Notes: generated by a model not told the origin, from the letters alone. A stretch of 64,000 bases of DNA from an uncultured Thiotrichales bacterium (GCA_964636225.1 CAZWQM010000003.1:66172-130171); one strand, 5' to 3'. Shown: positions 5,119-53,568, counted from the first letter of the stretch. Made by a program: numbers and translations.

Positions 5119-5217
5119 AGGCATGTGGTAGTATCTCGCCAGCAATACTTTTGTCCAGTTGGGCAAAAGTAATTTTTTAGTTAGCAGTTCAGGTGTCTCC
5201 TTTTAGTTTTTAAAAGA

Positions 5218-5380
5218 GAGATGAAACAGGGAATCTGGTGAAATACCAGAACTGCCCCCGCAACGGTAATCAAGTCTAAATAAACAAACATGTCACTGCA
5301 TATTTATGTGGGAAGGCTGTTTATTTATTAGTCTAGTTAAAGACAAAAAACTTGGAAGCCCGGAGACCGGCCTGAGACTG
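5218..5380 (+). ncRNA. cobalamin (adenosylcobalamin) riboswitch in the btuB leader
   Basis: The core GGGAATCTGGTGAAATACCAGAACTGCCCCCGCAACGGTAA is present. A B12-box GGAAGCCCGGAGACCGGCCTG lies downstream and closely parallels the E. coli btuB leader AAGCCCGAAGACCTGCC. A CACTGC...GGGAAGGC pairing is also present. Confidence 0.8.
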
Positions 5381-5517
5381 CGCGGCAAATTGCGGTGGGC
5401 AATTCGGGCTGCTTGGACCACACTCGCTTGATAACAAATATCAGCACGTAAGATAGTGTGCGTCTTGCGCATTCTATAGTCACCGCGTTTGCTCAATTGT
5501 CCAATTAAAGGGGAACA

Positions 5518-7425
5518 ATGAGCTACCCACGCAACCTCCGTTTATTTATGCTACTTTTATGCTGCAGCAATTCATTTGCCACAGATATGCTTCGCTCGAT
5601 ATCTGTCACGGCAAGTCGCAGCACAACCCCAACAGAAAACGTGGCAGGCGCATTAACCGTAATTACAAAACAGGAAATAAAAAACTCACACGCAGTGTTT
5701 GTCTCAGAACTGTTACAGAATGTTCCAGGGCTGAATGTCAGTACTCAGGGAAGTTATGGCGGCTTAACCCAAATACGCATTCGTGGCGCTGAAGCCAATC
5801 ACGTCCAGGTAATAATAGATGGAGTTGAAGTCAACGACCCGGCTAACCCATCCGGTTTTGATTTTGCGCATTTATTGGCAGACAACATCGAGCACATAGA
5901 AATATTGCGCGGACCTCAAAGCGCATTGTGGGGAAGCGATGCTCTAGCGGGCGTGATAAGCATCACCACAGCATCTGCATCGCAAGCTAATGAACTTATA
6001 CTAACAAATACTTATGGAGCAAATAATAGTATCTCAAGTAACCTTCTGTTACTTGCTATCAAAGATAATTTTGACATGGCCATCAGCGGAAGCTTTTTTG
6101 ACACGGATGGATATAATACAGCAACCACAGGGCATGAGCGAGATGGTTACGATAATTCTACGGTCAACATCAAAGTAAATTATTCAATCAAGGATAATAT
6201 AGAGACAGGTATCAGCACTCGCTACACTAATGCCAGTAGTGAATTCGACCCGGCGTCCACAGGAGTACCCACTGACGGGTTTGGTAAAAATGAAATTGAG
6301 CAGATCTATGGCCGTGGTTTTTTTAAGCTGAACACTTTAAATCAACAATGGGTGCATTTCGCAGAAGCTTCATTTCTTGACACGAAAAACACTAGCATTG
6401 ATGAAATTTTTGGCCTCTCAAAATCTGAAGCCGGCAAGGAAAAATTTTCGTACCAGTCAACTTTTCATCTACCATCAGTCGAAACTACATTTATCAACCA
6501 CTCTTTAGCAATCACAGCAGAAAGAGAACAGGAGAGATTCAAACAACAAGGAGCCGCATTTCCAGGATTTAACCCAAATCAACGCCAGAAGATTACTAAT
6601 TACAGCCAGATTGCAGAATACAAAGCAGACTTATTTAGTAATTGGTCACTATCGACTTCACTGCGCCATGATAATAACGATGAATTTGACAATCAGACAA
6701 CTTATCGTGTTGGTGTAAATTATCGACATCCCGCAACTGGCACGAAATTGTACCTAACCCATGGAAGCAGCGCGAAGAACCCGACGTTTACAGAACTATT
6801 TGGCTTTGCTCCGAATAATTTTATCGGCAACGCTGATTTACAGGCAGAAACATCTGAATCTTGGGAGTTGGGTATCTCACAAAATTTATTCCAGCAGCAA
6901 TTACAGTTGGATGCCTCACTTTTTTGGGAAGATTTAATTGACGAAATCCAGACAATATTTCTACCATCTTTTCAGTCTACCGTCATCAATAGCGAGTCAC
7001 GCAGTAAACGTAAAGGTCTAGAATTATCTTTAAATGGAAAACTGTCCAGCAATTTATCTGTCACTAGCTCATATACATATCTAGACGCGCGTGAGCCTGA
7101 TACTTCAGGTAATGATCACACCGAAATACGCCGCCCTAAAAACCAGTGGTCGGGTAACCTGCATTATTTATTTTCAGATCACAAAGCAGGTATTGATGTT
7201 AACGTTAATTATATTGGAGACCGCAGGGATATCGACTTCAGCCAGGGTGATAGATTAACATTGAATGACTACACGCTGGTCAATGCCTGCATAAACTATC
7301 AATTTAACGACAACTTTGAAATATTTGCACGGGCTACCAATTTACTAAACAAAAGCTATCAGGATGTGTTTGGTTTTGAAACCAGTAAATTTTCTGGACA
7401 CGTAGGACTAGAAATAAAACTATAA
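5518..7425 (+). CDS. btuB: TonB-dependent outer-membrane receptor, BtuB-like vitamin B12 transporter
   Basis: It has a signal peptide, a TonB-box-like ISVTASR, a plug domain, and a C-terminal beta-barrel ending in an aromatic residue. It sits directly downstream of the cobalamin riboswitch. Confidence 0.8.
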   Translation: MSYPRNLRLFMLLLCCSNSFATDMLRSISVTASRSTTPTENVAGALTVITKQEIKNSHAVFVSELLQNVPGLNVSTQGSYGGLTQIRIRGAEANHVQVIIDGVEVNDPANPSGFDFAHLLADNIEHIEILRGPQSALWGSDALAGVISITTASASQANELILTNTYGANNSISSNLLLLAIKDNFDMAISGSFFDTDGYNTATTGHERDGYDNSTVNIKVNYSIKDNIETGISTRYTNASSEFDPASTGVPTDGFGKNEIEQIYGRGFFKLNTLNQQWVHFAEASFLDTKNTSIDEIFGLSKSEAGKEKFSYQSTFHLPSVETTFINHSLAITAEREQERFKQQGAAFPGFNPNQRQKITNYSQIAEYKADLFSNWSLSTSLRHDNNDEFDNQTTYRVGVNYRHPATGTKLYLTHGSSAKNPTFTELFGFAPNNFIGNADLQAETSESWELGISQNLFQQQLQLDASLFWEDLIDEIQTIFLPSFQSTVINSESRSKRKGLELSLNGKLSSNLSVTSSYTYLDAREPDTSGNDHTEIRRPKNQWSGNLHYLFSDHKAGIDVNVNYIGDRRDIDFSQGDRLTLNDYTLVNACINYQFNDNFEIFARATNLLNKSYQDVFGFETSKFSGHVGLEIKL

Positions 7426-11351: not shown

Positions 11352-12739
11352 GAAGTAACCCTCTCTGGAACTGGTTTATCTTGATCAAGGTTAGTAAAGG
11401 CTGCAACAACCAGAGTTACAAAAAGATAAGCAATCGGAATAATCCAGGTCTTCCACGTCAATTCTGCGATTTCCGGATTATTTCTGAACCAGTCATAGAA
11501 GGTAATGATTGCGCCAAATATGACAAACCACATTAGGTAACTACCTGCAGATCTTGGCTTGCTATAAATGGCCAATACCGCAAAAAACAGGAAGTACAGC
11601 TCTGATAATCGCAATGCCATCTGAGAAGCCATAGGTGTAACTGCTTGCATTCCGAGATAACCGAGCCATACAAACGCCACCATAAACACTACCAGATTCA
11701 CTTTGAACAGGAAGCTTCGGTAGCGAATGGATTTTACTTTATTAGTATCAATCCACGGCAACAGGAAAAGTACAAATACGGCACCGCCCATAGCAACCAC
11801 ACCCCAGAACGGATTCGGGATAGCTCTTAATACAGTATAGAATGGTGTGAAATACCAGACCGGTGCAATATGCTCAGGTGTGGCCAGCGGATTGGCCGGT
11901 TCAAAGTTAGCATGCTCCAGGAAGTAACCACCCATTTCCGGTGCAAAAAACACGACCAGGGCAAAGATAAACAGGAACACTGCCACACCCACGATATCTT
12001 TTACAGAGTAATAAGGGTGGAATGGAATACCGTCCAATGGAATTCCGTCAGGACCTTTATTCTTTTTAATTTCAACACCATCCGGATTGTTTGAACCCAC
12101 AGTATGCAGCGCAGCAATATGCGCGACCACTAAACCCAATAGAACAATCGGTACCGCAATAACATGCAGGGCAAAGAAACGGTTCAGGGTGGCATCAGAA
12201 ACAACGAAATCACCTCGAATCCAAAGAGCCAGATCATCTCCAATCACAGGAATGGTACCAAAGAGGTTTACAATTACCTGCGCACCCCAGTAAGACATTT
12301 GTCCCCAAGGCAATAGGTAACCCATAAAGGCTTCTGCCATCAGACACATATAGATCATCATGCCAAATAGCCAGATTAATTCACGCGGTTGTTTAAATGA
12401 CCCGTACATCAACCCTCGCAACATGTGCAAATACACCACAATGAAGAATGCCGAAGCGCCAGTGGAGTGCATGTAGCGCACTAACCATCCCCAGTTGACA
12501 TCACGCATGATGTATTCGACGGATGCGAACGCGAGCTGGGCATCGGGTTTGTAGTGCATGGTCAGGAAAATACCGGTAACAATTTGTATTACCAGTACTA
12601 GCAGCGCCAGAGAACCAAAGAAATACCAGAAGTTAAAGTTTTTTGGCGCGTAGTATTTGGATAGATGTGCTTCCCAGAACTCGATTACCGGAAGACGGGA
12701 ATCGACCCATTCAATAATTCCGTTTACTTTTTTAGTCAT
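11348..12739 (-). CDS. petB: cytochrome b of the bc1 complex
   Basis: A 463 aa polytopic protein with the conserved cytochrome b histidine-ligand helices. It sits between the Rieske and c1 genes. Confidence 0.9.
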
Positions 12740-13338
12740 TATGCTGCCCCTTCGTCAAGTTCACCGACTACGATCAGGTTGTCGCTTATATATTTATAAG
12801 GTGGGACTTCCAGGTTTTTATTAGCGGGTACATTCTTGTATACACGACCAGCTATATCAAATTTAGAACCATGACACGGGCAGTAGAAACCTCCGACCCA
12901 ATCAGGCCCCAAATCTTCGGGAGCCACTTCCGGGCGGAAGGTAGGAGAGCATCCTAGATGAGTACAAATACCCACCAGCACGAGTATATTGGGTTTAAGG
13001 GAGCGCATTTCATTACGTGCAAACTCTGGCTGTTGTGTCAGATCGTCAGAATTTGGGTCACGAACTCTGTCGCTTGTTGAATCCAGCAAAGATACCATTT
13101 CCTTGGAACGTTTAACGATCCAGACCGGCTTACGTCGCCACTCTACCTGAATCTTTTGACCCGCCTCCATCTTACTGATATCCACCTCAACAGGTGCTCC
13201 TGAAGCCAGCGCCCTGGCACTCGGACTCATGGTGGATAAAAATGGCATCACTGCAACACCAGTACCCACCGCTCCCACCACACTTGCACTCACCGTCAGC
13301 ATTTTTCGACGACCCGTGTCTACAACGTGCTCTGACAT
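12739..13338 (-). CDS. petA: ubiquinol-cytochrome c reductase Rieske iron-sulfur subunit
   Basis: A Tat-like N-terminus (RRKML) and the Rieske boxes CTHLGC and CPCHGS. Confidence 0.9.
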
Positions 13339-13502
13339 GTAACTCTCCTTAACGATTGCCTAATATGACCTGCATTTAGCCAGCTTTACTGCGCTATAAA
13401 ATTGTCCCTAGATTACAGCGAATCTTACTCTGCCACCTAAAAGCGCGGTAGGATGGCGTAACTCGTAAAAAACGTCAAGGCAAATTCAATATTTCTGGAT
13501 TC

Positions 13503-14261
13503 TCAGGCGGGATTAATTTCATCAAAAAAACGCGCCTGTAAGCCAAATTTTTGCACCAAATGTTCCGCCAACGCCTGTACCCCGTATCGCTCCGTGGCAT
13601 GATGTCCCGCCGCAATGAAGTGAATCCCGCATTCTCTAGCAATATGTACAGTTTGTTCGGAAATTTCGCCAGTCAAATAGACATCTGCATCACTTTCTAC
13701 GGCATCACTAATCATGTGTTGCGCGCCGCCCGTACACCAGGCAATTCGCTGCACTTTTTCCGGACCTGTATTGATATGTATCACTTCGCGCTTCAGAAGC
13801 TGTGAGCACTGAGCGACGAATTGGTTTATCTCCATCCTTGTATCCAGTAAACCCACATTGCCCACTGAGTTCTTGCTGAATTTCTGAAGTGGCTCAACAT
13901 TCAAAATGTTTAGTTTTTGAGCAATTTGGGCATTATTGCCGACTTCGGGATGCGCATCCAAAGGCAAATGGTAGGCTAACAGACTCATATCGCTTGCCAA
14001 CAAGGCTTTCAGGCGCTGCTGCTTCATTCCTACTATGGCCGCCGGCTCATTCTTCCAGAAGTACCCGTGATGTACGAGAAGACAGTCTGCACCCCACTGC
14101 GCAGCCTGCTGGATGACTGCCAGACTGGCGGTGACGGCACTGGCAATTTTACTTATTTGCATTTTACCTTGAACCTGAAGGCCGTTCGGACAGTAATCGT
14201 TAAAATTACTGACGTGTAGATAGTCATTCGTGTAATCCGTTATTTCAGTTAAAGTTAGCAT
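13503..14261 (-). CDS. Nif3-family dinuclear metal center protein (YbgI/YqfO-like)
   Basis: PNGLQVQG ... LLVHHGYFWK ... and a C-terminal FIAAGHHATERYG are Nif3 signatures. Confidence 0.8.
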   Translation of the reverse strand: MLTLTEITDYTNDYLHVSNFNDYCPNGLQVQGKMQISKIASAVTASLAVIQQAAQWGADCLLVHHGYFWKNEPAAIVGMKQQRLKALLASDMSLLAYHLPLDAHPEVGNNAQIAQKLNILNVEPLQKFSKNSVGNVGLLDTRMEINQFVAQCSQLLKREVIHINTGPEKVQRIAWCTGGAQHMISDAVESDADVYLTGEISEQTVHIARECGIHFIAAGHHATERYGVQALAEHLVQKFGLQARFFDEINPA

Positions 14262-14346
14262 AGGTTTTTATGGCACAAATTTCTGTCAACATAATAGCAA
14301 GAGTGTCTACTGACGTCAGGCACAACGCATGGTAGTGTAGCGCTTA

Positions 14347-15498
14347 ATGATACCCCGCAGATTTTTGTTTTTTTTAGTTCAATCGGTTGCCATAGGAATA
14401 ATCGCGGCAGCCATATTGATATTCCTGCTACCAAATAACTGGCTTAAATCAGCTTCGTCTGATGCCAACTCGCCGACCACTGCAGGGACCACATCAGGTC
14501 CCTTCTCATATGCAGATGCTGTTGCCAAAGCCGCCCCTGCAGTCGTCAATATCTACACCAAAAAACTGGTACTAGGGACACGTCAATTTTCCTCCACCAA
14601 CCCTCAGCTGGAACGCATGCTGAGAAATATGTATGGCAGAAAGCTGGATCGTACAGTCACCAGTTTGGGTTCCGGAGTTATAGTCACCGCTGAAGGCCAC
14701 ATACTGACAAATAATCATGTCATCGAAAATGCGGAAGAAATTGAAGTTTTTCTACGCGATGGCCGGCAATTGAATGCAACCGTAGTGGGCGCGGATCCTG
14801 AAACCGATCTGGCCGTACTGCAAATTCCCTCTACAGACGTTCCGCTGATTGAATTTGGTACCTCTCGACCTCTCGCTGTGGGAGATGTGGTGCTTGCCAT
14901 AGGCAACCCTTTTGGCTTGGGACAAACCGTCTCACAAGGAATTATCAGTGCAACAGGAAGAAACCAGTTGGGAGTCAACGTGTTTGAAAATTATATTCAA
15001 ACAGATGCTGCCATTAATCCTGGCAATTCAGGTGGCGCTCTGGTGAATGCCAAGGGTGAACTAATCGGTGTTAACACTATCACTTCGTCAAAAAATGGCT
15101 CATCAGTAGGCATTGGTTTTGCCATTCCGATTGTGTTGGCCAAAGAAGTGATGACCCATATGATTAAGTATGGCCGCGTCCTGCGGGGATGGATTGGCGT
15201 GCGTATACAGAACATATCCCCTCAATTATCAGAATCTTTTGGTTTGACTGACAGTGAAGGCGTCCTGGTTTCAGGTATTGTACGTGGAAGTCCAGCTCAT
15301 ACTGCGGGCCTGTACCCGGGTGATATTATTATCTCCATGAATGACCAAATCATCACGGATGAACGCCAAGTCTTGAATGAAGTGATTCGCTACAGTCTGC
15401 AGCAAAAAATTAATGTCACAGGTATACGCAATGGAGAATTGATGAAATGGGTCGTCGAGGTAGGACAACGTCCTATTTATGGGGCGCAGACTTATTAA
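14347..15498 (+). CDS. degS: membrane-anchored periplasmic serine endoprotease with one PDZ domain (DegS/AlgW type)
   Basis: An N-terminal transmembrane helix and a trypsin-like catalytic triad context (TNNHVI, DLAVLQ, GNSGGAL), followed by a single PDZ domain. Confidence 0.8.
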   Translation: MIPRRFLFFLVQSVAIGIIAAAILIFLLPNNWLKSASSDANSPTTAGTTSGPFSYADAVAKAAPAVVNIYTKKLVLGTRQFSSTNPQLERMLRNMYGRKLDRTVTSLGSGVIVTAEGHILTNNHVIENAEEIEVFLRDGRQLNATVVGADPETDLAVLQIPSTDVPLIEFGTSRPLAVGDVVLAIGNPFGLGQTVSQGIISATGRNQLGVNVFENYIQTDAAINPGNSGGALVNAKGELIGVNTITSSKNGSSVGIGFAIPIVLAKEVMTHMIKYGRVLRGWIGVRIQNISPQLSESFGLTDSEGVLVSGIVRGSPAHTAGLYPGDIIISMNDQIITDERQVLNEVIRYSLQQKINVTGIRNGELMKWVVEVGQRPIYGAQTY

Positions 15499-15598
15499 AT
15501 ATCCCAATACATTTCATATAATATATCAACCCGTATGTCGCAAGAGTAGACTTGAATGAAAACTTATCGCCTGCGTTGCAGTCATACTCATCACCCAA

Positions 15599-16147
15599 AT
15601 GAATACATTACATAATATAAACCTTGCCATGACCGCCAGATTATTCAATTCCGCACTCGCTGTGCTCATTTTATTAAGTTGTTATGCCACTGTAAGCTTT
15701 GCAAAATCCCCCGCCCGGGTTATTGCCGGCTGGGCGGAAAAAGTACGAGTTGAAAACCATCCTTATGACATCAAGGCAAAATTGGATACGGGAGCCAAAA
15801 CCTCGTCCATTCATGCGATTGATATCCAGCCATTCAAGCGAGATGGTGAACGCTGGGCTAAATTCACACTGATACTTAATGATAGTCAAGGCGAGCAACA
15901 CAAAATTACTTTGGAAAAACCACGCTCACGTAAAGCCAGCATAAAAAACCACGATGGTAATAATGATACGCGATATGTTATTGACCTTGAAGTATGCTTT
16001 AACGGTCGCAGGTTTACTACGGAATTCACATTGGCAGATCGCAGCGAATACATATACGATATTTTGCTGGGTCGGCAATTCCTTAAAGAGGCTGCGATTA
16101 TTGATCCTGATAAAACATTTTTAACCCTCGCCTCGTGCGAGGCATAA
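15599..16147 (+). CDS. secreted retropepsin-like aspartyl protease (the so-called ATP-dependent zinc protease, DUF785 family)
   Basis: It has a signal peptide. The sequence contains the aspartyl protease motif DTGA (AKLDTGAKTSSIH). Its size and its position next to a RimK-like ATP-grasp gene fit this family. Confidence 0.7.
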   Translation: MNTLHNINLAMTARLFNSALAVLILLSCYATVSFAKSPARVIAGWAEKVRVENHPYDIKAKLDTGAKTSSIHAIDIQPFKRDGERWAKFTLILNDSQGEQHKITLEKPRSRKASIKNHDGNNDTRYVIDLEVCFNGRRFTTEFTLADRSEYIYDILLGRQFLKEAAIIDPDKTFLTLASCEA

Positions 16148-16194
16148 TAGGCATCTCTTTTTCGGCAGTGGTACAATTTTAATAAAATCATTCT

Positions 16195-17721
16195 ATGCAC
16201 CGAACCCCTGTAATTTTCTGGTCCGCATTTTTTATCTTTGTCGGACTGGCTGTGTTTTTACACAAAACGATTCAGCTGGATTTTCCTTTGTCTGCCGATC
16301 AGAAAACTGAAGCATGGACGGTACAGGCTCGCCTTAGTTTTGAAGCCAACAAGCGCAATGTAAAAGCCATGCTTTATATTCCAGACCACACCCCTGGCTT
16401 ATCAAAACTGGAAGAATATTTTATCTCAGGGAAATTTGGTTTAAACACAAGTGAGAGCGGTGACAACAAAACCGCAAACTGGGCAATTAGAAAAGCCCAA
16501 GGCACCCAAACCCTCTACTACCGTACGACAGTTTCCAAATCGGCTAATACTGCTAAATGGAACGCTGTACCCGACTATCCGGCCGCACCACACTTTGCAG
16601 AACCCTATGCGACTGCCATCGCTAAAGTCATTGAGGATGTTCGTAGCCAGTCTGCGGATACATATACGTTCACCTACGAACTTATCTCCCAACTCAAGTC
16701 TTCTGATGCCAATGAAAATATTTCATTGATCCGCGGCCTGGCTGACTCGGATCAGGAAATTGCAGATCTGCTGATTGAGCTTCTATCCATTGCCCACATT
16801 CCTACTCGTAAACTTTGGGTGATCGCTCTGGCAGATGCCGTGACTAATGCACATCCGAAAGTACTGATACAGGCTTACAATGGAGACGAATGGATAACCT
16901 TTGACCCTAAAGATGGCAGCTCAGGTATACCTGCAAATCATTTGGTTTGGAAAGTCGGTGATGACGATTTTTACAAAGTTGAGAATGGGAAAAATGTCAA
17001 TCTTGAATTCTCGGTAACTAAAACCTACATCGAAGTACTGAACGTAGCCAAGCAAAATACGAAACGCTCAAATTCAATGCTTGGCCACTTAACTTTGTTC
17101 GCGTTACCGGTACAAAGCCAAAACACCTACAGTCTTTTGCTAATGGTTCCACTGGGAGCCATGCTGGTGGTATTCATGCGCGCATTTGTTGGTGTACAAA
17201 CATTTGGCACGTTCATGCCTATCTTAATCGCTGTCGCATTCCGTGAAACTCAATTACTCTGGGGCATTATACTTTTCACTGGAATTGTCTTTGTAGGGTT
17301 GCTAATCCGCTTCTACCTGGAGCATCTGCGCTTGCTACTGATTCCCAGACTGGCGGTTATTTTAGTCGTTGTTGTTACACTAATGTTAATCATCAGTTTT
17401 ATAACCAGACAACTGGGCGTGGAGAGACTGCTTTCTGTTTCTTTATTCCCAATGGTTATTATGGCCATGACTATTGAACGCATGTCTATATCCTGGGAAG
17501 AAAATGGAGCACAGGCCGCGCTTTTTCAGGGCCTGGGCAGTTTGATTGTCGCCTGCTTTGGTTATCTATTAATGACCAACGAGCATCTTTCTTACCTGAT
17601 GTTTGTATTCCCTGAATTGTTATTCGTGATATTGGGTATTTGTCTAATGATGGGACGTTATACAGGTTATCGACTCAACGAGCTGTACCGTTTCCGTGAA
17701 ATGAAATCGCCGCTTAAGTAG
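16195..17721 (+). CDS. 7TM membrane protein with a large N-terminal extracytoplasmic domain (inactive-transglutaminase-fused 7TM family)
   Basis: An N-terminal transmembrane helix, then about 280 aa of soluble domain, then seven hydrophobic helices at the C-terminus (about nt 17080-17700). Its position between the DTGA protease and the ATP-grasp gene matches the described three-gene cassette. Confidence 0.6.
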   Translation: MHRTPVIFWSAFFIFVGLAVFLHKTIQLDFPLSADQKTEAWTVQARLSFEANKRNVKAMLYIPDHTPGLSKLEEYFISGKFGLNTSESGDNKTANWAIRKAQGTQTLYYRTTVSKSANTAKWNAVPDYPAAPHFAEPYATAIAKVIEDVRSQSADTYTFTYELISQLKSSDANENISLIRGLADSDQEIADLLIELLSIAHIPTRKLWVIALADAVTNAHPKVLIQAYNGDEWITFDPKDGSSGIPANHLVWKVGDDDFYKVENGKNVNLEFSVTKTYIEVLNVAKQNTKRSNSMLGHLTLFALPVQSQNTYSLLLMVPLGAMLVVFMRAFVGVQTFGTFMPILIAVAFRETQLLWGIILFTGIVFVGLLIRFYLEHLRLLLIPRLAVILVVVVTLMLIISFITRQLGVERLLSVSLFPMVIMAMTIERMSISWEENGAQAALFQGLGSLIVACFGYLLMTNEHLSYLMFVFPELLFVILGICLMMGRYTGYRLNELYRFREMKSPLK

Positions 17722-17727
17722 TTATAC

Positions 17728-18669
17728 ATGTTAGCTTTCATCAGCCCCAAGCAACTTCGCAGACAAGGTGTACTTGGCATTAACCAACGCAATACTGATT
17801 ACATAATGCGTTATAATCCACGTCATTTATATCCTCTGGTTGATGACAAACTCACAACTAAAAGTCTGGCTATCAAAGCAGGCATAGAAGTGCCCAGGCT
17901 TTACGCCACGATAGAAATCAACCATGAAATAAACACGCTGAATTCATTACTGGAACAGCACACTGAGTTTGTTATCAAACCAGCACATGGCAGTGGGGGT
18001 AATGGAATCTTAGTGCTAGGCGGAAGAACAGGTAAATTTTATAAAACCGCGAGCGGCAATTTAATTACTCTGGATTACATCAAACACTATGTCTCCAATA
18101 TTTTATCCGGCATGTACAGCCTTGGTGGGCTTCCGGATAAAGCCTTTTTGGAATATCGCGTTCAATTTGACCCAATATTTAAAAAAGTCAGCTTTAAGGG
18201 TGTACCCGATATTCGCATAATTGTTTTTCAGGGGGTCCCTGTATGCGCCATGATTCGTTTACCCACCAGCAAGTCGGGTGGCAAGGCAAATTTACATCAG
18301 GGCGCGATTGGCGTCGGGATTAATCTGTCCACTGGCCATACCACACATGCCGTAGTGTCTAATAACTCAATCGGTACACATCCTGATACTGGACATACGA
18401 TTACCGATCTTCAAATCCCTAAATGGGAAAAAATTCTGGAAATCGCAATAAAATGTGCGGATACAGTCGGGCTGGGTTATCTTGGCGTAGATCTAGTTCT
18501 GGATAAAACACTCGGCCCGTTAATGCTGGAGCTGAATGCCAGACCCGGATTAAACATTCAACTGGCGAATCAGCAGGGCTTACTTGGAAAACTAAGACAA
18601 ATTGAACAACTAAATCGAATACCACGCGATCCAAGTGAAAGAATTGCCTTGTCCAAATCGTTAACTTAA
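17728..18669 (+). CDS. RimK-related ATP-grasp amidoligase (alpha-L-glutamate-ligase-like)
   Basis: ATP-grasp motifs: VIKPAHGSGGNGILV, IIVFQG, and LGVDLVLDKTLGPLMLELNARPGL (the E..N catalytic pair). Confidence 0.75.
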   Translation: MLAFISPKQLRRQGVLGINQRNTDYIMRYNPRHLYPLVDDKLTTKSLAIKAGIEVPRLYATIEINHEINTLNSLLEQHTEFVIKPAHGSGGNGILVLGGRTGKFYKTASGNLITLDYIKHYVSNILSGMYSLGGLPDKAFLEYRVQFDPIFKKVSFKGVPDIRIIVFQGVPVCAMIRLPTSKSGGKANLHQGAIGVGINLSTGHTTHAVVSNNSIGTHPDTGHTITDLQIPKWEKILEIAIKCADTVGLGYLGVDLVLDKTLGPLMLELNARPGLNIQLANQQGLLGKLRQIEQLNRIPRDPSERIALSKSLT

Positions 18670-18678
18670 CTCAAAAGT

Positions 18679-19092
18679 ATGCGGGACAGATTACTACATA
18701 AAACACTTGTCACTATACTCGTCAGTATTGTGAGCTTGTCAGCATATTCGTTAAGCCATGCTGATGAAGCATCCGATAGCACAACAGTTGAAAGCACACC
18801 TTCATCTAAAGTCGATCAGCCCGTTATTGCACCCAATATAGATCTGCATGAAGTCGCCCCTCTTCCTGCACCAGTTCCAGAATTAATACCGGACCCCAAT
18901 ACTGACATTGAAATACCTGCTTCCACGCAAGATCATTTAGATAGCGACGAAGCCACTTCGCCTTCACAGGCTGCCAATTTGAATACAGAAGATAATCCCA
19001 AGCAGCCAGCCACGCCTAAAACCAAAACGCCCAAGAAGCTTGTTATTCTGGGTTCAGAAGTTCCGGTGAATTCATCCGCACGCCTGGTCTAG
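18679..19092 (+). CDS. signal peptide plus Pro/Thr-rich linker, and the start of a COG3608 deacylase domain; it ends at an in-frame TAG
   Basis: The N-terminal signal peptide is MRDRLLHKTLVTILVSIVSLSAYSLSHA, followed by a low-complexity linker. The last residues (KKLVILGSEVPVNSSARLV) resemble the N-terminus of AstE/AspA-family deacylases. The frame is the same as ORF 19234..20055. Confidence 0.5.
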   Translation: MRDRLLHKTLVTILVSIVSLSAYSLSHADEASDSTTVESTPSSKVDQPVIAPNIDLHEVAPLPAPVPELIPDPNTDIEIPASTQDHLDSDEATSPSQAANLNTEDNPKQPATPKTKTPKKLVILGSEVPVNSSARLV

Positions 19093-19125
19093 TCGCCACA
19101 AATCACTATTTCTGGCTTGGCCTAA

Positions 19126-20055
19126 CCTACTCCTATTCTGGTCATTCATGGCGCAGAGCCAGGCCCGACTGTTTGCCTGACCAGCGCAATACATGGTGAT
19201 GAACTAAATGGTATAGAAGTTGTTCGACGTGTCATGTACGATATTAACCCGAGCAAGCTTTCTGGCACGCTGATTGGTGTTCCGATTGTCAATCTTCAGG
19301 GCTTTCAGCGCTCTTCCCGCTATTTATTTGATCGCCGTGATTTAAATCGCTTTTTCCCGGGAGATCCAAACGGCAGTCTGGCTTCCAGAATCGCTTATTC
19401 ATTTTTTCACAAAGTCATCGCTCACTGTGATTATCTTATTGATATTCATGCCGGTTCTTTTCGAAGAAATAATCTTCCACAAATTCGCGCTAATATGAGT
19501 GACCCTGAAGTTGCAAAATTTGTCGGCTCCTTTGACAAAATTGCTGTTGTTCATCATCCGGGAAATTCAGGCATGCTGCGTACCGAAGCGAACAATGCAA
19601 ATATTGTTGCCATCACCATGGAGCTGGGCGAGTCTTTACGCATACAGAAGAAGCAGATTGAGGCTGGTACTCACAGTATTAACAGCCTGCTGGATAAACC
19701 GGAGATGTATCCACGCAGTTTTATTTGGGGAGAACCCAAACCGGCCTACTATGAATCGCTTTGGTTACGCGCGGAAAGTGGCGGCATTCTATTTAGCGAA
19801 ATAAGTCTGGGTGACCGTGTTTCAAAAGGAGATATTATCGGGATGGTGACCGACCCGATTACCAATCAAAGCACCAATCTGATATCACCGGTTAATGGAA
19901 ACATCATCGGCATGGCAGTGAACCAAGTGGTGATTCCCGGTTTTGCTGCTTACCATATTGGCATTGCCTCGACACAGGAAGCTATGACTAAAGTTGAGAC
20001 AGATCAGATTCCTGTGGATATTGGTGATGACGGTGAAATAATCGACCCGGAGTAA
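19126..20055 (+). CDS. succinylglutamate desuccinylase/aspartoacylase-family (COG3608) zinc deacylase domain; the frame opens just after an in-frame TAA
   Basis: The in-frame translation upstream of the annotated Met reads PTPILVIHGAEPGPTVCLTSAIHGDELNG. This is the HGxE zinc motif of the family. It is followed by IDIHAG ... ELGE in the listed ORF. Confidence 0.7.
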   Translation, partial: PTPILVIHGAEPGPTVCLTSAIHGDELNGIEVVRRVMYDINPSKLSGTLIGVPIVNLQGFQRSSRYLFDRRDLNRFFPGDPNGSLASRIAYSFFHKVIAHCDYLIDIHAGSFRRNNLPQIRANMSDPEVAKFVGSFDKIAVVHHPGNSGMLRTEANNANIVAITMELGESLRIQKKQIEAGTHSINSLLDKPEMYPRSFIWGEPKPAYYESLWLRAESGGILFSEISLGDRVSKGDIIGMVTDPITNQSTNLISPVNGNIIGMAVNQVVIPGFAAYHIGIASTQEAMTKVETDQIPVDIGDDGEIIDPE

Positions 20056-20073
20056 ACCTGCTGTATTTAATAA

Positions 20074-21150
20074 TTATGCCTGAAGCGAATGAATCAGCGC
20101 ATCACAAAATATTTTATTTTCACCTTTGGAACCCACAGTCACGCGCAAACACTGTTCTAGCCCCAGTTGTTTGCTGACATTCTTAATCAGAACTTTCTGT
20201 GCCATTAATTTATTAAATACTTCATCTGTATCCCTTTGCAGCACTTTGAATAAAATAAAATTAGCATCAGACACATAAGGTTTCACACCTTGAATAGCGG
20301 ACAAATCTGCAAACAGCGAACCGCGTAATAATCGAATGCTTTCTGCTTGCTCAGCAAATAAAACGTAATTATCCAAAGCAAATTCTATGGTGAGCTGTGT
20401 AAGCTGGTTAATATTATATGGCAGGCGAATTTTATTCAGTTGCGAAATAATGTCAGCACTTCCAGTTAACCAGCCAAAACGAATAGCTGCCAAACCGATT
20501 TTAGAGGCAGTTCTGAGTAACAGCATATTACTGTGTTGTGGAAGATCTTCTACAAAACTGTCTTTGGCAAAAGGACCATAAGCTTCATCTATAACTACAA
20601 AACCCTGGCTTTTATCGAGCAGGATTTCTATATCGTTTCTGTTCCATAAATTACCGGTTGGGTTATTTGGATACGCGAGAAAAATCAAAGCTGGATCATA
20701 TTGTTCGATCGCTGCCAACATCTTACTAAGATCCAGTTCGAAGTTTTCATCCAGTGGTACAACATGACAGTCAATACCAACCATGTCGGCAATCATTTGA
20801 TACATCGAAAAGCTGGGAGAGACTGTTAATATACATGCCCCCGGTTTGGCAATCGCCATCACCATTAGCTGTATAAGCTCATCCGAACCATTACCCAACA
20901 GCAAATCGCTATTATCCTTTGGGCCAAATTGATTCTTGAGTTTTTGCTTGATCAGCTGCGGATTGGGTTCCGGATAGCGGTTAAGCTGAGCATGATTGAT
21001 TTTATCCAACCATTTGGTTTGCATTTCAACCGGCCAGGTAAAAGGATTTTCCATGGCATCCAGTTTTACAAATCCGGTGGCATCCGGAACAGCATAGGCT
21101 TGTAGTTGTGTGACTTCCGGACGTATCCGGGAAAGGACATCACCTTTCAT
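20074..21150 (-). CDS. hisC: histidinol-phosphate aminotransferase
   Basis: A class-II aminotransferase of 358 aa, located in the hisG-hisD-hisC run. Confidence 0.8.
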   Translation of the reverse strand: MKGDVLSRIRPEVTQLQAYAVPDATGFVKLDAMENPFTWPVEMQTKWLDKINHAQLNRYPEPNPQLIKQKLKNQFGPKDNSDLLLGNGSDELIQLMVMAIAKPGACILTVSPSFSMYQMIADMVGIDCHVVPLDENFELDLSKMLAAIEQYDPALIFLAYPNNPTGNLWNRNDIEILLDKSQGFVVIDEAYGPFAKDSFVEDLPQHSNMLLLRTASKIGLAAIRFGWLTGSADIISQLNKIRLPYNINQLTQLTIEFALDNYVLFAEQAESIRLLRGSLFADLSAIQGVKPYVSDANFILFKVLQRDTDEVFNKLMAQKVLIKNVSKQLGLEQCLRVTVGSKGENKIFCDALIHSLQA

Positions 21151-21155
21151 AGCGG

Positions 21156-22460
21156 CTATTTTCCCAGGCCTCTGTACTCAGCCGACCTTGCATGCGCAGT
21201 TAAACCTTCACTGTGCGCCAGAGTGCTGGCAACACCGCTGAGTTCAAATGCCCCTTTATCTGAGCAGTTGAGAACAGTCATGCGCTTTTGAAAATCATAC
21301 ACTCCCAATGGTGATGAGAATCTTGCGGTCCCGCTGGTGGGTAACACATGATTGGGTCCGGCACAGTAATCACCAAAGACTTCCGGAGTATGGTGCCCCA
21401 TAAAGACGGCTCCTGCATGCTGAATACTTTCTAATAATGCCTGTGGATCCGAAACTGAAAGTTCCAAATGCTCAGGAGCAACCAGATTGCTAATACGAGC
21501 TGCCTGTTCAAGATTATCTACTTTGACAAAACTGCCAAAAGTATTAACGGCCTGTTCGATTATTTCCGATCGTTCAAGTGTAGACACTAAAGTGTTCATG
21601 GCGGCTTCAACTTTGTTCAGCATGTCCTCTGAAGTAGAAATCAGAGTTATACGTGCCAGAACATCGTGTTCGGCTTGGGAAAAAAGATCCATCGCTATCC
21701 ATTCGGGATTGGCGGAGTCATCACAGATCACCAACACTTCGGATGGACCGGCAATCATATCAATACCGACTTTGCCGAATACCATTCTTTTCGCGGTAGC
21801 AACATAGATGTTTCCGGGGCCGACAATTTTATCTACCGCCGGCACCGTTTCTGTACCATAAGCCAATGCCGCAACAGCTTGTGCACCGCCAATACGAAAT
21901 ACCCTGTCAACACCCGCCACAGCGGCAGCGGCCAGCACGGTAGAATTTATTTTCCCATCTGGAGTCGGCGCTACCATAATTATCTCGGGCACTCCGGCCA
22001 CTTTTGCCGGAACTGCATTCATTAACACCGAAGAAGGATAAGCCGCGGTACCGCCTGGGACATAAATGCCGACCCGGTCTAAAGGTGTCACACGCTGACC
22101 CAATACCGAGCCATGTTCATCTTTATACTCCCATGACTGCAGCTTCTGATGTTGCGCGTAGTCGCTCACACGCGAGTGAGCACGTTGTAGGGCTTCACGT
22201 TGATCGGTATCAATAGTGGCTAACGCGGCATGCAGTTCGTCCTGTGAAATTTCCAGCTGACTGGCGCTCGTGATGTCCAGACGATCGTACTTATTCGTGT
22301 ACTCTAATAACGCACTGTCACCATTTGCGCGAATCTGAGCAATGATATCCTGAACCAGATGGGTGACATCCGATTCATGCTGTGTGTTTGCTTCAAGAAA
22401 CTCACTAAACTGTTTTTGAAATGATTCCTGCTGTGAGTTAAAACGTCGAATTGTAAGCAT
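21156..22460 (-). CDS. hisD: histidinol dehydrogenase
   Basis: 434 aa with conserved HisD blocks ([25 protein letters not shown]). Confidence 0.9.
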
Positions 22461-22478
22461 ATAAAACCAATGACTGAC

Positions 22479-23552
22479 TTAAGCAGCCGCAGTATCTTTT
22501 GCCTGACGTCTCGCCTGAACTGCTTTGGCAAATTGTTCAAGCAATTTTTCTGTGTCTTCCCAGTTGATACACGCATCCGTCACACTTTGACCATATGTTT
22601 CCGCTTTTCCGTTAAGAACATTTTGGCGACCTTCTACCAGATTACTTTCCACCATAACACCGAATATTCTTTTCTCACCGGATGACAATTGCTTGCAGAT
22701 ATCTTCTGCCACATCTTTTTGCTTGTCATGTTGCTTGAGACTATTGGCGTGACTACAGTCAACCATGACGCGAGGTGACAGATTGGCTTTTTGCAGACTT
22801 TCACACGCTTCATTAATGCTGTCCTTATCGTAATTGGTCGCTTTACCTCCACGTAGAATCACATGGCAATCCGGATTACCCGAGGTTGAAAAAATAGCAG
22901 ATTTACCTTCCTTGGTGACTGAAAGGAAATGATGTGGACGGGTTGCAGACCCAATCGCATCGACGGCGACTTGCAAGCCTCCATCTGTAGCATTTTTGAA
23001 TCCGACAGGGCAGGACAAACCTGAAGCGAGTTCTCTGTGTACCTGACTCTCGGTAGTGCGCGCCCCTATCGCACCCCAACTGACCAGATCCGCAACATAT
23101 TGCGGACTGATCAGATCAAGATATTCCGTACCGGCAGGAATGCCCAGGTTATTCAAATCCAGTAATAATTCTCGAGCCAGTCTAAGACCGGTATTGATTT
23201 CAAAACTGTCGTCCAGCTTCGGATCGTTAATCAAGCCTTTCCAGCCAACTGTAGTACGCGGCTTTTCAAAATATACACGCATGATAATCAGCAGGTCTTT
23301 TGACCATTTGTTAATTTGCTTTAGTAAACGCTGTGCATAATCACGTGCTGCTTTGGGGTCGTGGATCGAACAGGGCCCCACTACCACAACTAAACGATCA
23401 TCATCACCTTGAAGAATTTTTTGAATTTCAGTACGCGCCTGATGGACACAGCTGGAAGCGTCATCTGACATAGGAAATTCTTCCAGCACCTGCAATGGGG
23501 TGCTGACTTCTTTCATTTCAATAATTCGCAGATCGTCAGTTTGGTATCTCAT
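22479..23552 (-). CDS. aroG: 3-deoxy-7-phosphoheptulonate (DAHP) synthase, class I (AroG-like)
   Basis: Nearly collinear with E. coli AroG: DDLRI..IKE, DDRLVVVVGPCSIHD, MRVYFEKPRTTVGWKGLINDP, SWGAIGARTTESQVHRELASGLSCPVGFKN. Confidence 0.9.
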   Translation of the reverse strand: MRYQTDDLRIIEMKEVSTPLQVLEEFPMSDDASSCVHQARTEIQKILQGDDDRLVVVVGPCSIHDPKAARDYAQRLLKQINKWSKDLLIIMRVYFEKPRTTVGWKGLINDPKLDDSFEINTGLRLARELLLDLNNLGIPAGTEYLDLISPQYVADLVSWGAIGARTTESQVHRELASGLSCPVGFKNATDGGLQVAVDAIGSATRPHHFLSVTKEGKSAIFSTSGNPDCHVILRGGKATNYDKDSINEACESLQKANLSPRVMVDCSHANSLKQHDKQKDVAEDICKQLSSGEKRIFGVMVESNLVEGRQNVLNGKAETYGQSVTDACINWEDTEKLLEQFAKAVQARRQAKDTAAA

Positions 23553-23566
23553 TCTGTTATTCCTGT

Positions 23567-24202
23567 TTAACTTTTCTCAATGGCTTTGCGAAATTGTTCG
23601 ACAATACTTTGTAGTGTATCAAATCTAACTTTCAATGACGCCTTATTCGCGACTAAACGAGAGCTAATATCTTCTATAAGTTCCAGTGGTTGTAAACCAT
23701 TGGCACGCAGAGTGTTGCCAGTATCAACCAGATCCACAATTAAATCTGCCAACCCGGTCAAAGGAGCCAGTTCCATCGAGCCGTATAATTTGATTATTTC
23801 AACCTGTTTTCCCTGCTGGGCAAAATATTGCTGTGCAGAGTGCACATATTTAGTTGCGACTTTAAGTCTTTTCCCTGTGTCAGGCATATCCGATTTACCC
23901 GCCACCATGAGTCGACATTTACAAATATTCAGATCCAGCAGTTCATAAAGTCCGTCACCCTGCGTCTCCATCAGAGTATCTTTACCTGCGATGCCAAGAT
24001 CAGCCGCACCATACTGCACATAAGTCGGTACATCAGTGGCACGAATCACTACCACGCGCACATTCGGATTTTGCGTATCGACCAGTAACTTACGTGTTTT
24101 ATCCAGATCTTCTACAGGTGACATCCCCATTGCTTCAAGCAGTGGCAGGGTGTCTTTTAGAATACGCCCTTTAGAAATGGCTAAAGTAATCTTTTTATTC
24201 AT
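23567..24202 (-). CDS. hisG: ATP phosphoribosyltransferase, short form
   Basis: 211 aa, starting [15 protein letters not shown], with conserved short-form HisG motifs. Confidence 0.85.
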
Positions 24203-52726: not shown

Positions 52727-52961
52727 GTCATCCTTCCTTATCGTTGTCAGCAGCTGATGGATAATTACTCAGCCAATACTAAAATTTCTTAATGACATTA
52801 TCTCTTTATTCAATCCATATGAAAACTGGCCCAGTCAAACAATATTGATAAACGTGTAAATAATTCACTCATTAAGGTGCATATAGTGGGTTATGTTATT
52901 ACATTGTGCTTATTTACTAAGCACAGGAGATAGAATCGAAATCAGTAAAGATTAAGACTCA

Positions 52962-53116
52962 TGCTGTTTGATAAAATCACGGATAAAACGTCGGATCTCT
53001 CTCGCGGCACTGGTATCCAGATCATCACATAATGAGACAAATTCATCCCGCTCTTTTTTGTGAATGCGAATCACTAGCTGGCTGTTTTTATTTTTATTTT
53101 TTGCTTTATCGCTCAT
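52962..53116 (-). CDS. unlisted 51-aa ribbon-helix-helix-like small protein (it falls below the ORF-track length cutoff)
   Basis: The reverse-strand translation is MSDKAKNKNKNSQLVIRIHKKERDEFVSLCDDLDTSAAREIRRFIRDFIKQH*. The stop is the TGA at 52962-52964. It has a basic N-terminal beta-strand and then two helices. A perfect palindrome, ATATACA-A-TGTATAT, lies about 25 nt upstream of its start (about nt 53140-53154). Confidence 0.45.
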
Positions 53117-53568
53117 TACCCTGATCGTCCTGATCCAAAGATATACAATGTATATACATTATAATGCGCAAACTTTTGGTGCGTCAATGTAACTAGTCGT
53201 GGCTATTCGTCCACTTGCCTTCAGAACGAGCGGTCTATTCAGGATAAAATCCCAACGCGTGTTGTTAGATCAAAACAATGGCCGATGTATATGTGCCGTA
53301 TAGAGGGAAAGTGCGCCTAAGCATACTGGCGACTTTCAGTGACAAAGAACTGAAGACAGCAATACTATATCGTCCACCCACACCATGTTGATGAACCCGA
53401 GTTAAATACCCCACGCCAAAACAGGGAATGCGTACATGCCGCTTCACATGACTTGAAGTACAAATATCGACGATCGATACTAGCTGCAGTTAAGCGTGAT
53501 TAAGTTACCCGCCAGGCATTGTTGCAAGATTGATATTTTTTAAAATTTGCGTGAATTTTTATAAAAAA

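Follow-up and report, generated by a model that had tools for sequence, protein, structure and literature searches.

Does a bacterial locus that encodes an ATP-grasp ligase, and just after it a secreted deacylase, constitute a system for adding amino acids to an envelope target and taking them off again? The question is raised by positions 15599-20055 of a 64,000-nucleotide stretch of DNA from an uncultured Thiotrichales bacterium (GCA_964636225.1, CAZWQM010000003.1:66172-130171; the whole stretch is called the window below), where four reading frames follow each other on the + strand. An earlier note, made from the sequence alone, had taken these frames to encode a secreted retropepsin-like protease, a seven-transmembrane (7TM) protein, a RimK-like ligase and a secreted zinc deacylase, and had proposed that the ligase writes, and the deacylase erases, tags that are probably of glutamate. 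The answer reached here differs in its last part. Positions 15599-18669 are an intact rloABC operon and what follows is left over from a fourth gene, specific to one clade, that has decayed, an identification whose probability is put at about 0.85-0.9. The operon is a further copy of an already named cassette, for which RloA structures have been solved and a genetic dissection has been carried out.

The cassette was named rloABC in Pseudomonas aeruginosa by Lormand et al. (mBio 2025; PMC12239564), and the statement of the earlier note that it had received no experimental characterisation no longer holds. In P. aeruginosa RloA is a secreted retropepsin-like peptidase (structures 9G58 and 9G59), RloB is an inner-membrane protein in which an inactive transglutaminase is fused to a 7TM domain, and RloC, with 24% identity to RimK, is an ATP-grasp protein of the cytoplasm (PMC12239564). 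In vitro, RloA cleaves polyglutamate (polyE), genetically encoded and alpha-linked, where eight or more glutamates stand in a row, and its catalytic Asp and the basic residues of its channel are required both in vitro and in vivo (PMC12239564). Loss of all three RloA paralogues (rloA1-3) is lethal in hypo-osmotic medium. Deletion of either rloB or rloC suppresses that lethality, and rimB does not interact genetically with the rloA genes (PMC12239564). Disruption of the RloB homologue of Shewanella vesiculosa, found in a screen, alters membrane-vesicle production (PMC12096838; the 2009 amidoligase paper of Iyer and Aravind is cited there for this type of cassette). No later published work on RloB or RloC was found, nor was any assay of RloC found in the literature.

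The intact rloABC operon

Three intact open reading frames (ORFs) make up the operon: rloA at 15599-16147 (182 amino acids), rloB at 16195-17721 (508 amino acids) and rloC at 17728-18669 (313 amino acids). The fourth frame spans 18679-20055. The intergenic gaps are, in order, 47, 6 and 9 bp, and a simple scan of the + strand gave no terminator-like site between the four frames. Tight same-strand spacing at these positions had been described in the earlier note. So had the families of all four products, which profile searches bear out (PF05618; PF14400 with PF14402; PF14397 and TIGR02291; PF24827), and its recognition of the first three genes as a cassette of retropepsin, 7TM protein with inactive transglutaminase, and RimK-related ATP-grasp protein stands, as do the features it had read in their products: a DTGA motif, a signal-like N-terminus on the first, an extracytoplasmic domain beside the 7TM region and intact ATP-grasp motifs.

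The product of rloA matches PF05618 (E 4e-35, 121 bits; cutoff 27) and has its DTGA at residues 63-66 (15785-15796). It aligns with the RloA crystal structures 9G59 and 9G58 (E 1e-19), and also with 2PMA. Matched to 9G59 and 9G58 are the DTG, a Lys two residues before it, an Arg in TRYVIDL and an Arg in LADRSEY. These basic residues are K61, R125 and R148 in the window protein, the structures having (E/A)RPVI(D/E)L and LTDRSAF opposite R125 and R148, and by their motifs they would be the equivalents of the substrate-channel residues K46, R114 and R137 of the P. aeruginosa enzyme. The N-terminus is a hydrophobic, signal-like segment at residues 7-37 that ends SFA/KSP. With high confidence, the protein is predicted to be a Sec-exported retropepsin-like aspartic peptidase. 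The start of rloA is ambiguous, either 15599 or Met11 at 15629, the latter being the start annotated in two of five near-identical contigs (172 amino acids). Starting at Met11 yields a more canonical signal peptide (MTARLF...SFA/KSP), and 15629 may be the true start.

The rloB product matches both PF14400 (E 7e-47, 159.8 bits) and PF14402 (E 1e-97, 326.6 bits), each with a cutoff of 25. A transmembrane helix at residues 3-27 is followed by a periplasmic transglutaminase-like domain at about 28-300 and then by the multi-pass C-terminal 7TM domain. There is no cysteine at all in the periplasmic domain, which fits an inactive transglutaminase. The stretches of highest conservation in the protein are charged motifs within the 7TM domain, and two of them, TFGTFMPIL..AFRETQ (17200 onward) and AMTIERMSI.WEE.G (17461 onward), are invariant. 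RloB is taken with high confidence to be an inner-membrane protein that joins a periplasmic, catalytically dead transglutaminase-like domain to a 7TM domain.

The rloC product matches PF14397 (E 5e-94, 315 bits against 31.4). That it falls within the RimK-related clade, on which the earlier note had staked its reading, is clear from the curated TIGR02291 model (rimK_rel_E_lig, 'alpha-L-glutamate ligase-like'), which it passes with 452.8 bits against 314.2. Its ATP-grasp motifs are intact, with the KPAHGSGGNGI loop at residues 84-94 (17977-18009) and the Mg/ATP motif LELNARPG at residues 267-274 (18526-18549), and a RimK profile and an ATP-grasp_3 profile also give matches over 226-276. The protein was scanned for hydrophobic segments, and none turned up. 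It was considered whether RloC could be RimK proper, the S6 glutamate ligase, and this was rejected since both of the relevant models failed (TIGR00768, 57.4 against 143.4; PRK10446, 25.4 against 331). Judged by its profile matches, RloC is related to RimK but distinct from it, and is predicted with high confidence to be a cytoplasmic RimK-related ATP-grasp ligase.

The neighbourhood is conserved in relatives, as the earlier note had also required of its cassette. When an alignment of RloB was searched against one genome per GTDB species, 80 loci were returned. In every one of them rloC directly follows rloB (80/80), and an RloA-like gene lies upstream in 64 of the 77 with room to show it. The gene upstream of rloA in the window, on the same strand, encodes a DegS-like protease; it was rejected as a member of the cassette because it is syntenic in the nearest relatives only. 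In one of the 80 loci (L082 7001-8516, from a chromosome-level metagenome-assembled genome) the RloB match is in two frames, covering query residues 1-373 and 401-505, a possible frameshift or assembly error.

A fourth gene in decay

Translated with read-through of its stops, the frame at 18679-20055 matches PF24827, AstE_AspA_cat (E 1.5e-40, 139 bits against 25). It falls under the equivalog cutoffs of DoeB (80 against 402.7), AstE (26.7 against 305.7) and aspartoacylase (27.7 against 180), and its profile matches 3CDX and the DoeB structure 6TWL at E about 1e-17. The architecture is that of a secreted zinc hydrolase. Behind a hydrophobic signal-like N-terminus (18679-18765) come APN.DL.EVAPLP (18829-18882), which is a conserved motif, and a Pro/acidic linker; the catalytic domain follows, and the C-terminal region is barrel-like. 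In the catalytic domain are found the HGDE zinc motif (HxxE; residues 172-175, 19192-19203), which is invariant in orthologues, DLNRFFPG with its carboxylate-binding DLNR (19339-19362), DIHAG (19441-19455) and MELGES (19618-19635); the zinc ligand H257 and the catalytic E315 are present and likewise invariant in orthologues. The family, the signal-like N-terminus and the Pro-rich linker had all been seen by the earlier note. The gene, however, is not open.

Two in-frame stops interrupt it, both upstream of the HxxE motif. The frame was aligned (alignment A1) with 14 orthologues, which are full-length at 440-475 amino acids and run from a signal-like N-terminus through the conserved APNLDLKEVAPLPEP motif and a Pro/acidic linker, itself variable, to the catalytic domain and C-terminal region. 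TAG at 19090-19092 (alignment position 138) replaces a Trp, encoded by TGG, that is present in all 14 of them. TAA at 19123-19125 (position 149) replaces Leu or Ile (TTA in relatives). The ORF listing accordingly splits the frame into 18679-19092 (137 amino acids) and 19234-20055 (273 amino acids), and the latter is annotated as a separate gene both in the deposited assembly and in metagenome contigs. This residual ORF is not expected to yield an active secreted enzyme because it starts 3′ of HGDE and has no signal peptide.

Could the stops be errors of sequencing or assembly, or could they be read through, by recoding or a suppressor, so that the fourth gene is functional after all? In favour of such a reading, nothing else interrupts the frame, and its catalytic motifs can still be made out. 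However, both the TAG and the TAA are present in four contigs (L003-L006) from separate samples (SRR15927518, ERZ27257198, SRR15927517 and SRR24791495), which are 99.6% identical to the window over the region and carry other polymorphisms alongside the shared stops. Because they are identical in four independent metagenome assemblies, the stops are considered real and fixed in the population, and sequencing error was rejected as their source. Read-through would have to act on two different stop codons. Moreover, rloA, rloB and rloC end on TAA or TAG at lengths that match their orthologues, so there is no codon reassignment, and the window contains no tRNA gene; reassignment and read-through were both rejected on these grounds. 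Eight changes unique to the remnant fall at columns that are invariant in the 14 orthologues, among them T258A, N157H and P297S, against 0-1 in the nearest relatives, and the same comparison gave no excess of changes at invariant columns in RloB. A functional fourth gene in this organism is extremely improbable. With high confidence the frame is a pseudogene of a secreted AstE/AspA-type (COG3608-type) zinc hydrolase, in which two nonsense mutations have become fixed in the population.

Two further features of the hydrolase family were seen. The homologues in the alignment share an acidic C-terminal tail, ...DGE(V/I)IDPE, whose final Pro-Glu is invariant; those checked are rlo-linked, and the tail also occurs in some homologues that are not. 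The linker between signal peptide and catalytic domain is highly variable, and stop-free frames of 560-730 codons in L017, L020, L022 and L040 compare with about 450 in most relatives.

Linkage and loss of the hydrolase

The association of the hydrolase gene with rloABC depends on how close the relatives are. It is directly 3′ of rloC in 18 of the 22 surveyed loci whose RloB is at least 50% identical to that of the window, and in 1 of the 46 in which identity is under 50%. It is upstream of the cassette in three further loci, and L033, L040, L046, L135 and L141 have it beside rlo genes in arrangements of other kinds. The block of four genes is kept with entirely different flanking genes in L002/L011. 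Conversely, rloABC occurs with no hydrolase directly downstream in L010, L025, L027 and L029 and in all 45 of the more distant loci with room for one. The hydrolase is an optional accessory of the rlo locus, specific to one gammaproteobacterial clade.

Its loss has occurred more than once. The rlo-linked copies are intact single frames except in the window species and in L008, which ties with L001 for the highest RloB identity among the GTDB species representatives (83%). In L008 (9076-10423) the hydrolase gene has a 2-nt deletion, and hence a frameshift, about 10 nt from the site of the window's TAA, together with the substitutions E318K, G330S, S336I and R364H at invariant residues. The two inactivations arose independently, at nearly the same spot. 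In L010 (8533-10711) the synteny of degS, rloABC and hisC is kept, with rloC and hisC only some 140 bp apart and nothing of the hydrolase left: a clean deletion. Among six syntenic species the hydrolase has thus been lost in three ways, by nonsense mutations, by frameshift and by deletion, and in each case rloABC is intact. The dead gene of the window shows that the three-gene system can persist in the absence of the hydrolase.

A second survey, anchored on the hydrolase and made in metagenomes, also returned 80 loci. In it rloC is directly upstream among the closer homologues only (about 52% identity or more), and two more loci have other rlo-adjacent arrangements. The contexts of stand-alone homologues are lineage-specific, one lineage having an ABC-F ATPase there. 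Clustering of the neighbouring ORFs revealed no RimK-like or other ATP-grasp partner near the stand-alone homologues, and a conserved partner for them was rejected, lineage-specific synteny being all that was found. In L139, L150, L159-L162 and L164 the stand-alone hydrolase gene is divergent to genes for an MltD-like transglycosylase (SLT and LysM domains) and a YkuD L,D-transpeptidase, and has LpxL and KdkA on its other side. An envelope neighbourhood of this type might hint at a peptidoglycan-related substrate for the hydrolase.

Systems with comparable logic

The nearest comparison is P. aeruginosa rloABC itself. The families, their order, their predicted locations and the tight operon-like spacing are the same. 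What differs is that the window sequences are distant and known here from sequence alone, and that the window's clade has a fourth gene, for the secreted AstE/AspA hydrolase, which is undescribed in Pseudomonas and dead here.

RimK and RimB (RimA), which glutamylate ribosomal protein S6 and trim it, are likewise a glutamate ligase of the ATP-grasp type and a polyglutamate-trimming, retropepsin-like protease from PF05618. Both of those proteins are cytoplasmic, however, and act on RpsF, whereas the protease of the window has a signal peptide and a 7TM protein is interposed. The AstE/AspA family hydrolyses N-acyl bonds and frees a C-terminal amino acid, typically an acidic one (Glu or Asp). The window frame has the HxxE...H, the DLNR and the catalytic Glu in common with AstE, aspartoacylase and DoeB (PF24827; structures 3CDX, 6TWL, 3NA6 and 2QJ8). 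Those are cytoplasmic catabolic enzymes of about 300-350 amino acids, and the window's subfamily differs from them in adding a signal peptide, APNLDLKEVAPLPEP and the Pro/acidic linker, for frames of 440-730 codons. No papers tying RimK to succinylglutamate desuccinylase were found.

In the polyglutamylation of eukaryotic tubulin, TTLL ATP-grasp ligases write glutamate chains and CCP zinc carboxypeptidases of family M14 erase them. An ATP-grasp writer with an eraser of zinc carboxypeptidase fold was the logic of the earlier note, and by analogy the window locus may be seen in the same way. The homology is at the level of fold or superfamily only, the compartments are other ones, and the demonstrated Rlo eraser is an aspartic endopeptidase. 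The PgsBCA machinery makes poly-gamma-glutamate, and PgdS, CapD and PghP are its hydrolases. Again by analogy, this machinery would have in common with Rlo an ATP-dependent amide ligase facing the cytoplasm, coupled to membrane proteins for delivery of a glutamate polymer out of the cytoplasm, and depolymerases dedicated to work outside it. Against that, PgsB is Mur-ligase-like, its linkage is gamma where the RloA substrate is alpha-linked, and its membrane components are unrelated to those of Rlo.

What the locus may do

A single chain of events, from RloC through RloB to RloA and in some species on to the hydrolase, can be put forward tentatively, with somewhat less than an even chance of being right as a whole. 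In the cytoplasm, RloC would spend ATP on the assembly of a glutamate-rich chain with alpha linkages, either free or on an acceptor. RloB, always encoded beside it and having a 7TM domain that is polar and highly conserved as well as a binding-type domain in the periplasm, would carry the product to the periplasmic face of the membrane or present it there. RloA would then trim that product; cutting of polyE has been demonstrated for the P. aeruginosa enzyme only. The genetics in that species show that the product dependent on RloB and RloC is harmful under hypo-osmotic conditions when the RloA proteases are missing. In relatives whose fourth gene is intact, the hydrolase would probably act after RloA and release glutamate from the fragments or stubs, since its family frees a C-terminal acidic residue from an N-acyl linkage; that step would be dispensable. 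The organism of the window would run the three-gene version.

That the hydrolase is, in its gammaproteobacterial clade, a previously undescribed fourth component of Rlo, stripping glutamate from RloA products as a periplasmic counterpart of CCP, is the more doubtful part. If it is, its three independent losses would mean that the last step is redundant or is costly in some niches, and its substrate would point directly to the chemical product of RloB and RloC. An intact orthologue of the hydrolase would be a cheap biochemical probe for what these two proteins make, because members of its family as a rule free an acidic amino acid from an amide linkage. A deacylase is never mentioned in the Rlo paper (PMC12239564), and its position, in one clade almost always right after rloC, had gone unremarked.

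Several results weigh against these identifications and the role drawn from them. The window's RloA is under the NCBIfam cutoffs for RloA3 (130.7 against 210), RloA (95.6 against 280) and RloA2 (88.2 against 250), and is below that for RimB too; the three RloA models are of a narrow equivalog or exception type, and with scores below them the protein is not assignable to a particular Pseudomonas paralogue. RloB likewise scores 434 bits on NF052267 where 900 is the cutoff, in an alignment that covers 14-505 of the model's 508 positions; the model is of 'exception' type and tuned to close relatives from Pseudomonas. With both proteins below the NCBIfam cutoffs, the case for orthology to the P. 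aeruginosa RloA and RloB is made from domain architecture and synteny. An export role for RloB receives no support from its fold, because the 7TM domain has no convincing relative among solved transporters: an AlphaFold2 model with 60 homologues as input (mean predicted local distance difference test score 80) gave just weak matches, of high root-mean-square deviation, for that region. The Pfam label of PF14397, which RloC matches, is 'sugar-transfer associated', and goes back to an older prediction of a non-protein acceptor. Synthesis and export of polyglutamate by RloC and RloB would be an extrapolation from homology to RimK and from suppressor genetics in a species only distantly related. 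Hydrolase homologues at 43-55% identity mostly stand alone and not beside rlo genes. A functional link of the hydrolase to Rlo, for which the basis is gene order in one clade, is plausible but unproven.

How do the other explanations fare? A working four-gene module in this organism, with the ATP-grasp enzyme adding glutamates and the secreted COG3608 deacylase removing them, would account for the presence of all four families in the order described, for a hydrolase that follows rloC in most loci of the clade even where the flanks differ, and for an AstE/AspA enzyme, of a kind that releases C-terminal Glu or Asp, whose DLNR and HxxE...H...E motifs lie in frame. It is nonetheless very unlikely. 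The module cannot operate here, because its eraser is a pseudogene, with two fixed stops upstream of the zinc motif, and this is so in the natural population as well as in the window genome. The gene is linked in one clade only and repeatedly lost there, and rloABC persists without it in L010, L025, L027 and L029 and in 45 more distant loci. The polyglutamate cutter that has been demonstrated is RloA (PMC12239564). Of the proposed writer and eraser at the envelope, then, the logic of adding and removing fits the published genetics (PMC12239564) and survives, and the part of remover passes from the deacylase to the RloA protease, since it is RloA that cuts at least eight glutamates and it is the lethality of RloA loss that deletion of rloB or rloC suppresses.

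More serious is the possibility that the hydrolase is unconnected with Rlo chemistry and is a periplasmic amidase or carboxypeptidase, acting for instance on peptidoglycan peptides or an N-acyl amino acid, that is a chance neighbour of rloC. This falls short of being probable but is a live alternative. About 64 of the 80 hydrolase-anchored loci have no visible rlo gene (many of these contigs are short), the contexts follow lineage-specific synteny of housekeeping and envelope genes, and the three separate losses among six syntenic species left rloABC intact. On the other side stand the position of the gene, which here shares its strand with rloC and begins 9 bp behind it and which in most of the clade is the ORF right after rloC, the survival of the four-gene block when its flanks change, and the rlo-adjacent arrangements of other kinds. 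A stand-alone position does not exclude a shared pathway, because P. aeruginosa RloA paralogues also act from unlinked positions (PMC12239564). It is unlikely, on the other hand, that RloC and RloB make no polyglutamate and instead attach an amino acid to a surface glycan or lipid-linked precursor, with RloA and the hydrolase acting on some other envelope substrate. The Pfam name of PF14397 would suit such an acceptor, in P. aeruginosa no protein of the periplasm was found to carry polyE, and the phenotypes there look like defects of the cell wall (PMC12239564). But RloA does cleave polyE in vitro, the residues by which it binds polyE are needed for complementation in vivo (PMC12239564) and are conserved in the window, and RloC passes a curated model for alpha-L-glutamate ligase-like proteins.

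Short divergence and other features of the window

The same metagenome contigs permit a comparison at very short distance. Between 12281-23721 of the window and L003 (also L004-L006) there are 40 differing sites, all of them genic; 29 are non-synonymous and 11 synonymous. The ratio of non-synonymous to synonymous changes against the 99.6%-identical contigs is 7:2 in rloABC and 15:8 in the flanking housekeeping genes, the excess gene by gene being 4:0 in the degS-like gene, 3:1 in a NIF3-like gene and 4:2 in hisC. Relaxed selection on the whole operon was rejected as the cause: the flanking housekeeping genes have the same excess, which is therefore a genome-wide effect of short divergence. At most of the differing sites the metagenome contigs share one letter, so that the window genome is the outlier, and the excess may represent changes not yet purged at very short divergence, or else errors or relaxed selection in the window genome.

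Downstream of the hydrolase remnant are convergent hisC, hisD, the DAHP synthase gene and hisG. The window is about 91% coding. No further broken gene was seen in it, and no paralogues of the four proteins were found elsewhere in it. A stretch of 842 bp at 52727-53568 is without a long ORF, having just one of 54 amino acids, with many Lys, Arg and Glu residues, on the - strand (52952-53116). At 5175-5389 on the + strand there is a cobalamin riboswitch (Rfam RF00174, 108 bits), upstream of an ORF of 635 amino acids at 5518-7425.

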